DNA of 64,000 bases, taken from NCBI GenBank assembly GCA_947629645.1, contig CANREV010000005.1, forward strand, positions 12,067-76,066, written 5' to 3'. A program made the translations under genes and the position numbers. This document shows, in pieces, positions 40,816 to 45,797 of this stretch. Source of the stretch: an uncultured Acetatifactor sp. Lineage in GTDB: Bacteria > Bacillota > Clostridia > Lachnospirales > Lachnospiraceae. Within the stretch, counting starts at the first letter, position 1. Each line of letters opens with the position of its first letter. The notes beneath the pieces were generated by a model. That model was not told the DNA's origin and searched no databases. It worked only from the letters and a program-made list of their open reading frames with translations.

Positions 40816-42210
40816 ATGACAAGTACACCTGTTAAGGATGTAAGTCCTATCCTTACAAACCTGACAACGAAAGCATCGAACAAAAGCGGCGGCGTTGGAC
40901 AGAGCGGATTTCAGGCTGTGCTCAACGATCAGACCAGACAGAACGCGCAGGACCAGGTTGAAACGGGGAAAAGTTCTCTGGAGAAAAAGCCTGTGGAGCA
41001 GTCGGCGCAAAAGCCCCAGACTAAACCCGGCGAATCTCTGAAGGCGAAAGAGCCACAGACAGTGCAGGCTAAAGAAGAGGATTCCATGCCTAAAGAGTCA
41101 GTGGAAGAGCTCTCGCCCGAAGAACTGGAAGCGGCCATGGAAATTTTGGGAACCGCGGCTGCGGATCTGATACAGCAGGTTGCGGATCTGCTGGAAATCC
41201 CGGCGGAGCAAGTGCAGTCTTTGATGGAGGATCTGGGTATGGAAACGCTGGACGTCCTGGATCCGGCAAAGCTTACCGAATTGTTTGTGCAGGCAGTCGG
41301 AGCGCAGGATTCCTGTGAGCTGGTCACGGATGAAACGATGTACGGCGATTACCGGAAACTGATGGCACAGCTGGAAACCGTACTGGAAGTAAGCGCCGAC
41401 AAACTTCAGGCGGACCCCGAACAGCTAAAGATGCTGACAGGCATGCTCAAGGAACAGCCCGCAGTGGAGAGCCAGCCCGCGCCGAAGGAGGTCTTCAGGC
41501 AGGAGGAGGTTATCCCCAAAAGAGAGCAGGATGTTCCAACGCAGGCGCAGAAACCTGAGGAACAGATCGTGGAAACCGTCAGAAAGCCTCAGCCCCAGAG
41601 TGAGGGAAACAGCTCCAAAGAGCAGGATTCCGGTAAGGAGCAGACAACAAAGGAAGAACCCAGGAATATCTTTATCCAGAATTTGAGCAGGGAAGTTTCC
41701 CAGCCGGCCGCGGATAAGCTGGCGGAGCCGATGATGGCGGCAGCGGACAGAGCGGACACTGAAAACATTATGCGGCAGATCATGGATTACATGAAGATCC
41801 AGCTGAAAGCGGATACCACCAATCTGGAGATGCAGCTTCATCCTGCAAGTCTGGGAACGGTGCAGGTCCAGATCGCTTCCAGGGCGGGAGTGGTGACGGC
41901 TAATTTTATCGCCCAGAATGAGACGGTAAAGGCGGCGTTGGAGAGCCAGATGGTTCAGCTGATCGAGCGCTTTGACGAGCAGGGTGTTAAGGTGGAAGCC
42001 ATTGAAGTGACCGTCCAGACCCATGAATTTGAGAGAAATCTTGAACAGGGAAGAGGCGGGGAACAGCAAAACGGCGAACCGGACAAAAAGTCGAGAACCA
42101 GAAGAATCAATTTACATGATGTGGTTTCCATGGAAGATATGGAAGAAGAGGATGCTCTGGCGGCGGACATCATGGCAGCCAACGGCAATACCGTGGATTA
42201 TACCGCGTAG
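40816..42210 (+). CDS. fliK: Flagellar hook-length control protein FliK
   Basis: Long low-complexity N-terminal region, then MQLHPASLGTVQVQI...LESQMVQL..F.EQGV. Confidence 0.9.
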   Translation: MTSTPVKDVSPILTNLTTKASNKSGGVGQSGFQAVLNDQTRQNAQDQVETGKSSLEKKPVEQSAQKPQTKPGESLKAKEPQTVQAKEEDSMPKESVEELSPEELEAAMEILGTAAADLIQQVADLLEIPAEQVQSLMEDLGMETLDVLDPAKLTELFVQAVGAQDSCELVTDETMYGDYRKLMAQLETVLEVSADKLQADPEQLKMLTGMLKEQPAVESQPAPKEVFRQEEVIPKREQDVPTQAQKPEEQIVETVRKPQPQSEGNSSKEQDSGKEQTTKEEPRNIFIQNLSREVSQPAADKLAEPMMAAADRADTENIMRQIMDYMKIQLKADTTNLEMQLHPASLGTVQVQIASRAGVVTANFIAQNETVKAALESQMVQLIERFDEQGVKVEAIEVTVQTHEFERNLEQGRGGEQQNGEPDKKSRTRRINLHDVVSMEDMEEEDALAADIMAANGNTVDYTA

Positions 42211-42320: not shown

Positions 42321-43127
42321 ATGGCATCAAATTTAGTTGCGCCAGTGGAAGATGGCAAGATCGTTGAGACGGAATCCCAGAGTTCCTTAAAGAAAGCGCA
42401 GAGTTCCAATAACGGGATGGATAAGGATGCTTTTCTGCAGCTTCTTGTGGCGCAGATGAGGTATCAGGATCCCCTGGAGCCCACCTCCAACACGGAGTAT
42501 ATCGCCCAGTACGCACAGTTTTCACAGGTGGAACAGATGCAGAATCTGGCGGCTACTTCGGAACTGGCAAGGGCTACGCAGCTGGTAGGACAGGAGGTAT
42601 ACATCAAGACAACGGATTCCACCGGCAATATGAAGTATGTCACAGGCAAGGTGGATTATGTGGTCTTTGAGAACAACAAGGCTTATCTTGCCATCAACGA
42701 ATCGCTGTATTCGCTGGAAGATCTGGATACCGTGGCGGACGCTGCATATCTGGACGCATACAATAAGGCGCTGAAGTTCAGCATCGATATGAACAAGCTG
42801 CCGGCTGTGGGCGGCGTTGATATGACAGACGCAGACGCGATCGACAAGCTGGAAGAGACTTACAACGGCATGAGCGATTACGAGAGGAGTTTCCTGGCTG
42901 AAGAGACTGTGGATAAGCTGCAGAAATACATTGAGAGGCTCAAACAGGTCCGTGCCGCCGCCGAGGAAGCGGAAAAAGGAACCGGAGACGGCGAGAGCAC
43001 GGAAGGCGCGGGAGACGTTGAGGGCTCGGAGGACGTTGAGGGCTCGGAAGGCACCGATCCGGAGAGCGGAAAGGATAACAATAAAGGCGCTGAGGGCGCG
43101 GAAAAAGGAACAGAAACAACGGATTAA
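42321..43127 (+). CDS. flgD: Flagellar hook capping protein FlgD with a C-terminal extension
   Basis: MDKDAFLQLLVAQMRYQDPLEP, AQFSQVEQMQNL, LVGQEV. Confidence 0.93.
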   Translation: MASNLVAPVEDGKIVETESQSSLKKAQSSNNGMDKDAFLQLLVAQMRYQDPLEPTSNTEYIAQYAQFSQVEQMQNLAATSELARATQLVGQEVYIKTTDSTGNMKYVTGKVDYVVFENNKAYLAINESLYSLEDLDTVADAAYLDAYNKALKFSIDMNKLPAVGGVDMTDADAIDKLEETYNGMSDYERSFLAEETVDKLQKYIERLKQVRAAAEEAEKGTGDGESTEGAGDVEGSEDVEGSEGTDPESGKDNNKGAEGAEKGTETTD

Positions 43128-43150: not shown

Positions 43151-43552
43151 ATGCAGATTAAGAATAACGGATATCTTTCCATTGAGCAGCTGACTGACCA
43201 GTACTTAAGCGGTGCGCAGAAGTCAGAGAACACCCGTGTGACCAGGGAGGGTCTTTCCTTTCAGGACGTTTTGCAGCAAAAGACGCTGCAGGAGGCAGGC
43301 AGCCTTAAATTTTCCAAGCACGCCTTGGGAAGATTGACGGACCGCAGGATCGAGCTGAGTCCGAATCAGCTGGAAAGGCTGAATGAGGGAGCGCAGAGAG
43401 CGGGACAGAAAGGGATCAAAGATTCCCTTGTGATCGTGGATGAATTGGCGTTTATTGTCAATGTACCCAATCAGACAGTTGTGACTGCAATGGACAGCAC
43501 AGAAACAAATAACAATGTATTCACCAATATTAATGGGGCAGTTATCATGTAA
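43151..43552 (+). CDS. Uncharacterised flagellar operon protein (TIGR02530-like)
   Basis: LKFSKHALGRL..R.I, DSLVIV, FIVNV.NQTVVTAMD, VFTNINGAVI; sits between flgD and flgE, as recalled for this family. Confidence 0.85.
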   Translation: MQIKNNGYLSIEQLTDQYLSGAQKSENTRVTREGLSFQDVLQQKTLQEAGSLKFSKHALGRLTDRRIELSPNQLERLNEGAQRAGQKGIKDSLVIVDELAFIVNVPNQTVVTAMDSTETNNNVFTNINGAVIM

Positions 43553-43618
43553 CCGGACCTTACAGGAGGTTACGTCTCCCGAACGACTGACGGAGACGGC
43601 TGTTCCCGGACAGGAGGA
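43553..43618 (+). ncRNA. Candidate structured cis-RNA (three-way junction) in the flgE leader
   Basis: Hairpins ACCT-tacagg-AGGT and CGTCTCC-cgaacgactgac-GGAGACG enclosed by CCGG/CCGG, closing just before the AGGAGG RBS. Confidence 0.5.
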
Positions 43619-43627
43619 ACAAGCACT

Positions 43628-45397
43628 ATGATGAGATCACTTTTTTCTGGTGTGGCAGGTCTTAAAACGCACCAGACCAAGATGGATGTTATCGGTAACA
43701 ATATCGCAAACGTAAACACTGTAGCGTTTAAAAGCAGTTCCATCACTTTCAATGATCTGATGAGCCAGACGACCCAGAAGGCCAGCGGGCCTAACGCGGC
43801 TACCGGCACCGGCGGCGTCAATGCGCGCCAGATCGGTCTTGGCGTAAAGTCCGCGGCGATCAACATCAATATCACGGGACAGGGTTCCGCACAGTCTACC
43901 GGAAATCCTTTTGATATCATGATCAATGGCGAGAACTTCTTCGTTGTCAGCGATGGCAGCCAGAATTTCTTTACCAGGGACGGTTCTTTCTATGTGGACG
44001 CGGCGGGAAACCTCGCCATGACCAGCAACGGTTATAACGTGATGGGCTGGCAGGTGGATCCGGCCACTATGGATATCAGGAAGGATACCGTATCCGCCCT
44101 GCGTATCATGAGCGCGGCTAACATGACCTATCCGCCCGAGGCCACCAGCCAGGCCAATATGTCCGGTATTCTGGATAAGACGGATAAGGATTCCACCAGC
44201 GCCAACGGCAAGGTGGTAAACCTGAACTTCTTCGATGCGCTGGGATATGAGTACACCGCAAAGTTTACCTTTAAAAAGTCTGATAAGACTGCGGAGGGCG
44301 AGGATTCCTACAGTCTGGAGCTGACCAAGATCCTGGACGCAAACGGCGAGGAAGTGTCAATGGAAGGGGATATCTCATCGCTGTTCGGCGATGACGGCAG
44401 GGTACAGGCAAAGGCGCAGAAGATTACCTTCGACTCCACCAATTATAAGTGGAACGGCACCACCTTAAAGAAAAAGGGAGACAATTCCGACATTGTAGAC
44501 ATAAAGGAGCTCTTTGACGGAGGCGCCATAAAGAAGCCTCGTACGACCAATGTTACGGTAAACGGGTCTGCCACAGCCACCGTGCAGGACGGCTTGGACG
44601 CCATTGCCAAGGCTTACGGCTTCGAGGGATCCACAGACGAGTTTCTGAATATGTTCTGTGATGTGACCGATGCGGATGGCAAGGTGACAGATACAATCAC
44701 GATTGAGGAGATGATGGCGAACCTGGCGGGAGGGGTGGCTGATAATGCGCTGCCTACCTTTGCAGATGCGGGTGCGGACGCTGACACTTCGTTTATGTCT
44801 TCCGGCCGCAATTTCACCGGCGTCACTGTTACCTTTAACTCTGACAACGGCGAATTTCTGGGCATCAACGGACAGTCTACGGTGTCGAACCAGACGCTGA
44901 ACCTGTCCCAGCTGGGCGGAAATTTCTCCGACATCAATATCGATTTCTCCCAGATCACGGAATATTACAACATGGGTACTTCCACCATCGGCGCGGACAA
45001 GGGAGATCTGGATGGACTGGGCACGGGACGTAAGCTGGGCGACATGATCGGCGTGTCCGTACAGCAGAACGGTATGATCTACGCAAGCTACGATAACGGC
45101 ATGACCAAGCTTCTGGGTCAGATCGCCACCGCAAGCTTCGCCAACGCTTCCGGTCTGGAGAAGCAGGGCGACAATCTGTATTCCGCAACGCTCAACTCCG
45201 GAGAGTTCGATGGCATCGGCGTGGATATCACCGCGGGAGGCGGTTATATGTCTACCGGCCAGCTGGAGATGAGCAACGTGGATCTGTCCACCGAGTTTAC
45301 GGAGATGATCACCACCCAGAGAGGATTCCAGGCAAACAGCCGTATCATCACGGTTTCCGATACTTTGCTGGAGGAACTTACCAACCTGAAGAGATGA
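43628..45397 (+). CDS. flgE: Flagellar hook protein FlgE (long form)
   Basis: MMRSLFSGVAGL...MDVIGNNIANVNT, FTRDGSF, LEMSNVDLSTEFTEMI.TQRGFQANSR. Confidence 0.95.
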   Translation: MMRSLFSGVAGLKTHQTKMDVIGNNIANVNTVAFKSSSITFNDLMSQTTQKASGPNAATGTGGVNARQIGLGVKSAAININITGQGSAQSTGNPFDIMINGENFFVVSDGSQNFFTRDGSFYVDAAGNLAMTSNGYNVMGWQVDPATMDIRKDTVSALRIMSAANMTYPPEATSQANMSGILDKTDKDSTSANGKVVNLNFFDALGYEYTAKFTFKKSDKTAEGEDSYSLELTKILDANGEEVSMEGDISSLFGDDGRVQAKAQKITFDSTNYKWNGTTLKKKGDNSDIVDIKELFDGGAIKKPRTTNVTVNGSATATVQDGLDAIAKAYGFEGSTDEFLNMFCDVTDADGKVTDTITIEEMMANLAGGVADNALPTFADAGADADTSFMSSGRNFTGVTVTFNSDNGEFLGINGQSTVSNQTLNLSQLGGNFSDINIDFSQITEYYNMGTSTIGADKGDLDGLGTGRKLGDMIGVSVQQNGMIYASYDNGMTKLLGQIATASFANASGLEKQGDNLYSATLNSGEFDGIGVDITAGGGYMSTGQLEMSNVDLSTEFTEMITTQRGFQANSRIITVSDTLLEELTNLKR

Positions 45398-45474: not shown

Positions 45475-45503
45475 AAGGGAGCGATTTTATCGCTCCCTTT
45501 TTT
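45475..45503 (+). terminator. Intrinsic terminator after flgE
   Basis: AAGGGAGCGAT-ttt-ATCGCTCCCTT followed by TTTT. Confidence 0.85.
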
Positions 45504-45611
45504 CTGTGCGGAAATGGAACGCGGGATTTTGCGGCGTTACAGGGCTGCATAGGGCGGGGCGCGCAGGGCGCAGTGAGGCGGCGGACCGGGCCGCGGGATG
45601 AGGTTTGGAAG

Positions 45612-45797
45612 ATGATTGAAGTGACAAAGCTCAACGGAGAGAAGATTCTTGTGAATCCTCATCTGTTTGAGGTGGTGGAGGAGACGCCGGATACGGTGAT
45701 CACTTTGACCACCGGAAAAAAAATAATTGTAAAAGAAAGTAGACAAGAGATAAAAAATCTTGTAAAATTGTATAGAAAGGATATTTTTACGGATTAA
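45612..45797 (+). CDS. flbD: FlbD/SwrD family protein
   Basis: MIEVTKLNGEKILVNPHLFEVVEETPDTVITLTTGKKIIVKES. Confidence 0.92.
   Translation: MIEVTKLNGEKILVNPHLFEVVEETPDTVITLTTGKKIIVKESRQEIKNLVKLYRKDIFTD

Follow-up and report, generated by a model that had tools for sequence, protein, structure and literature searches.

The DNA considered here is a stretch of 64,000 nucleotides, called the window in the following, from the genome of an uncultured Acetatifactor sp. (contig CANREV010000005.1). This study concerns a gene for a 'flagellar operon protein' of the family TIGR02530/PF12611 at positions 43151-43552 (+) of the window and a conserved RNA motif that begins at its stop codon. The gene is a real open reading frame (ORF) of 133 codons plus stop codon. 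It belongs to a typical Firmicute flagellar operon with the order fliI, fliJ, an unnamed ORF, fliK (40816-42210), flgD (42321-43127, +), the TIGR02530 ORF, flgE (43628-45397, +), flbD (45573-45797), motA and motB. The hook cap gene flgD, the invariant upstream neighbour, was recognised by PF03963 (E = 8e-23) and by synteny. The hook protein gene flgE, which lies downstream of the RNA motif and encodes 589 amino acids, was recognised by the Pfam domains Flg_bb_rod, D1 and Flg_bbr_C and by FlgE-type NCBIfam matches.

The window protein reached 116.8 bits with the NCBIfam model TIGR02530 ('flg_new', cut-off 83.2 bits) and 40.6 bits with Pfam PF12611 (Flagellar_put, cut-off 21.1 bits, E = 2.2e-10), the latter over residues 109-132, which are its final 24 amino acids. 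It is a full member of this family, and a Pfam scan of the window protein by itself returned PF12611 only. The family comprises 2001 representatives at 50% identity, and the closest homologues of the window protein come from Lachnospiraceae genomes and metagenomes. Among 301 sampled genomes of the phylum the family was found in 199, and in 198 of the 229 genomes that have FlgD. None of 14 control genomes contained a member, B. subtilis and E. coli included, both of which have FlgD. In the representative library, proteins P0178, P0242 and P0210 apparently join the C-terminal part of the family to pieces of MFS, short-chain dehydrogenase or permease proteins; they are in all likelihood assembly chimeras and were left out. 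The searchable literature contained no functional study of TIGR02530/PF12611, only a megaphage paper that names a phage homologue in passing.

The earlier note on this DNA, made from the letters alone, had suggested a ribonuclease-like protein of toxin descent that lacks an antitoxin-like partner gene. The second part of this claim holds: no antitoxin- or immunity-like partner gene was present at any locus examined, and in 110/110 related loci, as far as the contig allows, the gene is flanked by flgD and flgE within the constant order fliK-flgD-X-flgE-flbD. The gene is present as a single copy in the window's genome as well as in 197 of the 199 genomes with the family, and there is no mobility. 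Because of the single copy, the fixed synteny and the missing partner gene, the TIGR02530 gene is not a toxin-antitoxin module.

Relation of the TIGR02530 protein to DUF4258

The protein sequence contains ...LKFSKHALGRLTDRRIELSPNQLERLNEG...SLVIVDELAFIVNVPNQTVVTAMD...NVFTNINGAVIM. The features which had led the earlier note to propose a BECR-fold ribonuclease of the DUF4258 kind, the helix string FSKHALGRLTDRRI and the strand TVVTA, are both found in the window protein, and the His and Arg residues it had singled out proved to be conserved. In 138 aligned homologues H57 was retained in 136 sequences, R61 in 136, R65 in 135, I67 in 118 and T112 in 136. In the same set F54, S55, H57, A58, R61, R65, I67, K87, G88, T112 and the C-terminal FTNIDGAV were conserved to 85-100%. 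An alignment of 118 sequences showed H57 and R65 to be invariant and R61 to be conserved to at least 90%, and in a set of 69 sequences K87, T112, T125, N126 and I127 were invariant while D128 and G129 were highly conserved. In the family alignment T125, N126, I127, D/N128 and G129 each exceeded or reached 90%. Judged from these alignments, the H57/R61/R65...T112 motif is not a product of chance. His57 (codon CAC, 43319-43321, +), which aligns with an invariant His of DUF4258, is a candidate catalytic or RNA-contact residue. The last strand carries the family-specific C-terminal motif NNVFTNINGAVIM (43514-43549, +), the PF12611 signature, which was delimited by the Pfam match and by column conservation.

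The resemblance to DUF4258 (PF14076) holds at the profile level. When the 118 aligned members were scanned singly, 70 of them matched PF14076 (E ≤ 10, best E = 0.0011), and the second most frequent unrelated family was matched by 5 members. For a direct comparison 20 bona fide members of DUF4258 were taken from genomes within the phylum and aligned. The alignment of the TIGR02530 profile to the DUF4258 profile by hhalign gave a probability of 93.1% and an E-value of 3.2e-7 over 67 columns, pairing TIGR02530 residues 52-118 with DUF4258 positions 18-93. Three columns are invariant in the 20 DUF4258 proteins: the His is aligned with H57, the Ile of R-x-I with I67 and the strand Thr with T112. 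The spacing H-x3-R-x3-R-x-I is identical in both families. Searches of PDB sequences with the TIGR02530 protein, by single sequence and by profile, returned noise only. The profile evidence supports the view that the region of residues ~52-118 is remotely homologous to the BECR-fold toxin family DUF4258.

DUF4258 was placed in the RelE/ParE superfamily by Gerdes 2025 (PMC11980606) and has been moved to the colicin-like BECR branch, where it overlaps Ntox49, in a 2026 preprint (bioRxiv 10.64898/2026.08.28.747851). According to PMC11980606 it has never been characterised experimentally, and neither publication mentions flagella. The BECR topology consists of a pre-helix with or without a pre-strand, a helix and an antiparallel sheet; the active site of the colicin-like branch lies on pre-helix and terminal strand and has a conserved His as well as a Lys or Arg (bioRxiv 10.64898/2026.08.28.747851). 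The same combination, a conserved His and Lys/Arg on the pre-helix together with conserved residues of the last strand, is found in TIGR02530.

Two AlphaFold2 models were calculated, one of the full-length protein with 118 sequences (model 1) and one of residues 36-133 with 69 sequences from the related loci (model 2). Both contain a confident alpha/beta core with a predicted local distance difference test (pLDDT) value above 90. The predicted elements are the strand 53-54, the helices 56-64 and 71-86, the strands 91-96, 99-104 and 109-115, the helix 116-121 and the strand 129-132, an order that matches the BECR layout given in the preprint. The putative DUF4258-like core of residues 52-118 (43304-43504, +), to which hhalign, the PF14076 matches within the family and the pLDDT values all point, would thus be laid out as a pre-strand, a helix with H57-x3-R61-x3-R65-x-I67, a long helix and three strands ending T-V-V-T112-A-M. 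This link of TIGR02530 to the BECR fold appears to be undescribed in the searchable literature.

The leader RNA motif and its distribution

The covariance model R1 matched the window at 43547-43598 (+) with 56.6 bits (E = 6e-11). The motif is composed of the stem P1 (43549-43554 with 43568-43573, +), which includes the TAA stop codon, a GGA bulge (43555-43557, +), an inner hairpin (43558-43567, +) and the hairpin P2 with the conserved loop CGAACGACUGAC (43574-43597, +). This agrees with the earlier note, which had placed the start of a structured RNA at the stop codon. The 75-nucleotide spacer of the window, when folded alone, was modestly better than its shuffles (z = -1.83). The support for the RNA structure therefore derives from covariation across relatives and not from the window's own fold.

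In the relatives the layout comprises P1 with compensatory changes, an invariant unpaired GGA, the short inner hairpin and P2, whose freely covarying stem is 95% paired and whose loop of 12 nucleotides reads YGAMUGACWGAR. Across 69 sequences 86.8% of the cells were paired, compared to 36-54% when the partners were slid. The covariation score was 0.545 versus at most 0.20 in the slid controls, and double changes occurred in 13 of the 16 pairs. P1 overlaps the stop codon in 70/77 Lachnospiraceae loci and in 12/30 phylum-wide loci; it overlaps the codon or lies within 12 nucleotides of it in 96/107 loci. In one lineage (L094, L097, L101, L105) the P2 loop reads CGGCGACAYYGG in place of YGAMUGACWGAR, and the remaining motif is kept. 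Rfam 15 gave no match to the motif, neither for the window at E ≤ 1 nor for nine loci at E ≤ 0.1, and a literature search found nothing on any flgE or flgG leader RNA. The motif appears to be undescribed in both sources.

By covariance model search the motif was detected in 192 of the 301 genomes. The 229 FlgD-positive genomes divided into 188 with protein and RNA, 10 with the protein without RNA, none with the RNA without protein, and 31 with neither. Two of the ten exceptions were examined; with the search filters switched off, each proved to have the motif immediately behind the gene (35.9 and 21.7 bits). At least some of the exceptions are thus false negatives. Nineteen flagellated genomes without the protein have flgD directly abutting flgE, and the motif was not found in them with the filters off (best score 9 bits). 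The protein-less flagellated genomes span 15 GTDB families, of which at least five (f18, f36, f75, f76, f89) also contain protein-positive genomes. Loci L158, L160, L162-L164, L169 and L173 are flagellated and have neither TIGR02530 nor the motif; here two short FlgE-like genes often follow flgD directly in tandem, suggesting that the hook genes are arranged differently.

A second, usually unlinked motif copy was present in ~72 genomes, all of them protein-positive. In 13 of 14 cases examined it lies between a gene for an FlgF-like rod protein and flgG, which was called by TIGR02488 (305-370 bits, cut-off 252.75). The 31 protein-less flagellated genomes have no motif copy of any kind. The distribution of the motif tracks the protein even where the two are physically unlinked. 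Since copies precede both flgE and flgG, the motif is a leader of hook and distal-rod genes and not just the 3' end of the TIGR02530 gene. The window genome (G000) itself has a weaker copy at contig C64:5202-5257 (L176; 28 bits, E = 0.001), which starts at the stop codon of a 332-residue ORF and precedes an ORF of 198 residues with no known function. The four neighbouring ORFs there, including these two, gave no Pfam match; the cluster may be flagellum-related or secreted. In all three contexts the motif begins 0-25 nucleotides past the upstream stop codon.

For the protein-RNA module postulated by the earlier note these counts have two consequences. The association itself is borne out by a near-perfect co-occurrence (RNA in 188/198 genomes with the protein versus 0/31 without), but the RNA is not confined to this gene, as it also precedes flgG. 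With copies before flgG and, in the window genome, before the uncharacterised ORF, any action of the protein would have to be exerted in trans on the motif and would not merely be a processing of its own mRNA, as had been assumed.

Between the motif and flgE the window contains a third hairpin of its own (43599-43627, +), seen in the fold and the sequence, which carries a second CGGAC and partly pairs with the flgE Shine-Dalgarno sequence AGGAGG (43612-43617). Relatives have a variable linker at this place. A switch based on anti- and decoy-Shine-Dalgarno pairing (GACCUC/GAGG versus the GGAGGUC Shine-Dalgarno sequence) was considered and rejected as not general, the flgG-leader copies having a different inner stem. 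In two Lachnospiraceae/Roseburia loci (L023, L037) the spacer between flg_new and flgE is expanded to 200 and 421 nucleotides by tandem hairpin-forming units of ~40 nucleotides (...GAAAACCTGCGGTTTTCA.../...GAAGAACCTGCGGTTCTTCG...), whose insertion separates the conserved motif from the ribosome-binding site of flgE. Downstream of flgE, a strong terminator-like hairpin of 11 bp with a U-run (45475-45499, +) precedes flbD, so that flgE is bracketed by the leader motif and this hairpin. Relatives have a comparable element behind flgE in at least 37 of 70 loci. A weak match to the Rfam family 'Termite-leu' (24.6 bits, below threshold) corresponds to the same hairpin. As to the other flanking gene, the window FlgD is long (268 amino acids) and ends in an acidic, Gly/Glu-rich repetitive tail (...GDVEGSEDVEGSEGTDPESG...) that is missing from most FlgD proteins of the sampled genomes.

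Proposed role and rival explanations

In Clostridia and many Firmicutes most flagellar genes are transcribed on one very long mRNA. The hook requires about a hundred subunits and the distal rod dozens, per few copies of the products of neighbouring genes. Homology, synteny, RNA structure and co-occurrence together suggest an explanation to which we give somewhat less than an even chance: a domesticated DUF4258/BECR protein would recognise the flgE/flgG leader motif, bind or cut it, and so set the stability or the translation of the mRNA. A BECR domain of the DUF4258 type would have been taken out of its toxin-antitoxin context and fixed between flgD and flgE. The TIGR02530 protein would then recognise the two-hairpin motif by its GGA bulge and YGAMUGACWGAR loop and bind or cleave the intercistronic leader that precedes flgE, and in many genomes also that of flgG. 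As a result, the hook and distal-rod cistrons, whose products are needed in high copy, would be tuned independently of the remaining long flagellar transcript. Whether the predicted BECR protein catalyses cleavage or simply binds the leader RNA we regard as about evenly balanced. The intercistronic motif and the hairpin behind flgE are in keeping with an flgE mRNA segment that is processed and bounded by hairpins.

The TIGR02530 protein and the covarying flgE/flgG leader RNA offer a concrete candidate mechanism for the stoichiometry and timing of hook and rod. If the proposal is true, it would clearly exemplify the use of a BECR RNase-toxin domain, without an antitoxin, in housekeeping regulation, and the first functional handle for both TIGR02530 and DUF4258.

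Several results weigh against this interpretation. Taken alone, the window protein gave no PF14076 match at E ≤ 1 and stayed below the 25-bit gathering score. The fold claimed by the earlier note is supported by the profile comparison and by the order of the AlphaFold2 elements, but Foldseek searches of the PDB with the full-length and the 36-133 models found nothing significant, the best BECR matches having E-values of 1.0-2.0 and template modelling (TM) scores of 0.30-0.41. On the supporting side, the sole PDB proteins that aligned over the whole core (76-89 columns) were BECR or RelE/ParE-type toxins, namely CdiA-CT NC101, ParE, YafQ and HigB. In BFVD the best matches were borderline (E = 0.01-0.05, probability 0.9-1.0). 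The named ones among them were exclusively DUF4258 proteins (E = 0.03, probability 0.95), and unnamed ones reached target-normalised TM scores of up to 0.57. With hhalign and AlphaFold2 on one side and Foldseek on the other, the fold assignment has good support from the profile comparison and the topology and only weak support from the three-dimensional search. A further point against the proposal is the neutral isoelectric point (pI) of the family (~6.6-6.8), which is atypical of RNA binders. Fisher's test on the co-occurrence of protein and RNA gave 5e-30, a value that ignores phylogeny. The flgE copy of the motif is physically linked to the TIGR02530 gene, so its joint loss with the gene is partly trivial. 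The window genome's own flgF-flgG spacer (contig C27:26744-26822) lacks the motif. Finally, the motif leaves the flgE ribosome-binding site uncovered, which gives binding no obvious way to alter expression.

The N-terminus adds a further point of this kind, as it looks like an early flagellar export signal and would then indicate a role outside the cytoplasm. The N-terminal ~50 residues (43151-43300, +) are predicted to be flexible and are poorly conserved apart from a start of the form M-x-I-x-N..F/Y-x-S-I-E-Q, judged by model confidence and column conservation; pLDDT values here were 57-81 in model 1 and, for the helix and linker of model 2, 53-69 and below 50. Residues F37-Q-D-V-L41 (43259-43273, +) form an Fxxxφ motif resembling the gate-recognition motif of flagellar type III export. 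In the 118-member scan the Phe of this Fxx[IV]L-type motif was present in 117 sequences and the hydrophobic residue at +4 in all 118, at a median position of 37 (range 28-46), and every member has at least one A, V, I, L, M or F among positions 2-10. Early substrates have a two-signal layout in which the gate-recognition motif, at 36-40 in FlgD and 39-43 in FlgE, lies at least 26-30 residues from an N-terminal signal (PMC8983047, PMC10936197). The window proteins FlgD (FLQLL, 38-42), FlgE (FNDLM, 41-45) and FliK (FQAVL, 32-36) show the same pattern. On this evidence the protein could be an early, rod/hook-class type III substrate, a secreted hook-assembly accessory or a hook-cap or hook cofactor with no RNA role, and its BECR-like fold would serve as a scaffold. 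The neutral pI and the position of the gene between the genes of two exported hook proteins agree with this. The export-like N-terminus thus keeps alive the exported component which the earlier note had itself named as contradicting its proposal, as a rival that we consider unlikely, if by no means negligible. The agreement with early substrates is a pattern match, and the Fxxxφ motif is short. DUF4258 proteins too have an amphipathic N-terminal helix preceding the His motif, and the motif may therefore be structural. Export also leaves unexplained why invariant His, Arg and Thr are shared with a toxin family and why the leader RNA, its unlinked flgG copy included, co-occurs so strictly with the protein. 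A literature search found no secretome evidence.

Alternatively, the protein could remain in the cytoplasm and bind other proteins, for example as a chaperone or escort of FlgE or FlgD or by modulating the export gate. In that case the RNA motif would be an independent cis element, for instance a device for translational coupling, a processing site for housekeeping RNases or the site of another regulator. Early flagellar substrates have no known chaperone (PMC8983047), and the C-terminal strand NVFTNIDGAVI, which hardly varies, resembles an interaction motif. The constant position of the RNA shortly behind a stop codon would allow it to act via terminating ribosomes, and the inheritance of flagellar clusters as units would produce co-occurrence by itself. 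This possibility, which we judge decidedly unlikely, is difficult to reconcile with the DUF4258-motif His and Arg being conserved as strictly as in the toxins, with the unlinked flgG-leader copy occurring in ~72 protein-positive and 0/31 protein-less flagellated genomes, and with the mixed states within the five or more GTDB families named above. CsrA controls flagellin leaders in Firmicutes, and the leader RNA could also be a site for CsrA or another GGA-binding regulator to which the TIGR02530 protein is unrelated; the GGA bulge, which is invariant and unpaired, and the Shine-Dalgarno sequence GGAGG do resemble paired CsrA sites. However, the FlgD-positive genomes split 165/29/23/12 for CsrA and RNA, with 29 genomes having CsrA without the RNA and 23 having the RNA without CsrA (odds ratio ~3, p = 0.014), whereas the corresponding mismatches for the TIGR02530 protein are 0 (RNA without protein) and 10 (protein without RNA). 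Moreover, the conserved P2 loop contains no GGA. CsrA was rejected as the partner of the RNA on this phyletic pattern, as it is not present wherever the RNA is, and we regard the whole explanation as very improbable.

A role in RNA recognition and export of the same protein could also be combined. In such a secretion-gated checkpoint, quite improbable in our estimate, the BECR protein would repress or cleave the flgE and flgG leaders in the cytoplasm and would itself be an early type III substrate. Once the export gate is active, the protein would be pumped out and the bulk synthesis of distal rod and hook subunits would be released. The logic would be that of FlgM, but post-transcriptional, one assembly stage earlier, and derived from a domesticated RNase toxin.

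Comparison with known systems

Among known systems, the DUF4258 proteins share with the TIGR02530 family a helix that reads H-A-x2-R-[LM]-x2-R-x-I, the helix after it, three strands and the Thr of the strand. DUF4258 proteins count as putative toxins, both in type II toxin-antitoxin systems and in polymorphic toxin systems, whereas TIGR02530 proteins have no antitoxin or immunity gene, add ~50 N-terminal residues and the unique C-terminal NVFTNIDGAVI strand, and are encoded by a single-copy gene with fixed flagellar synteny. With RelE, ParE, YafQ, HigB and CdiA-CT(NC101) the TIGR02530 core shares the strand-helix-helix-strands order. Here, however, the three-dimensional similarity is not significant, a partner antitoxin is lacking, and a ribosome-dependent mechanism is not implied.

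The early substrates FlgD, FlgE and FliK resemble TIGR02530 in a disordered N-terminus with Fxxxφ ~37 residues in, and its gene neighbours are such substrates (PMC8983047). In contrast to them, TIGR02530 has a folded domain that is unrelated to axial proteins, and its export is putative.

Among regulatory systems, CsrA-FliW acts on flagellin leaders, and operon mRNAs are subject to selective RNA processing and stabilisation. The RNA motif described here is different and not in Rfam, and the phyletic pattern of CsrA does not fit; in common with the proposal, both achieve post-transcriptional tuning of a high-copy structural gene by means of a hairpin-bounded leader or intercistronic element. 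RegB of phage T4 is an endoribonuclease of RelE-like fold that cuts GGAG in intercistronic and Shine-Dalgarno regions. It is phage-borne and has no real sequence similarity to TIGR02530 (one of 118 members, E = 0.003), the activity of which is only proposed. What RegB and the proposed TIGR02530 system would share is the use of a BECR-type RNase as a motif-specific regulator of mRNA and not as a toxin, and the GGA bulge of the leader echoes the GGAG target of RegB.

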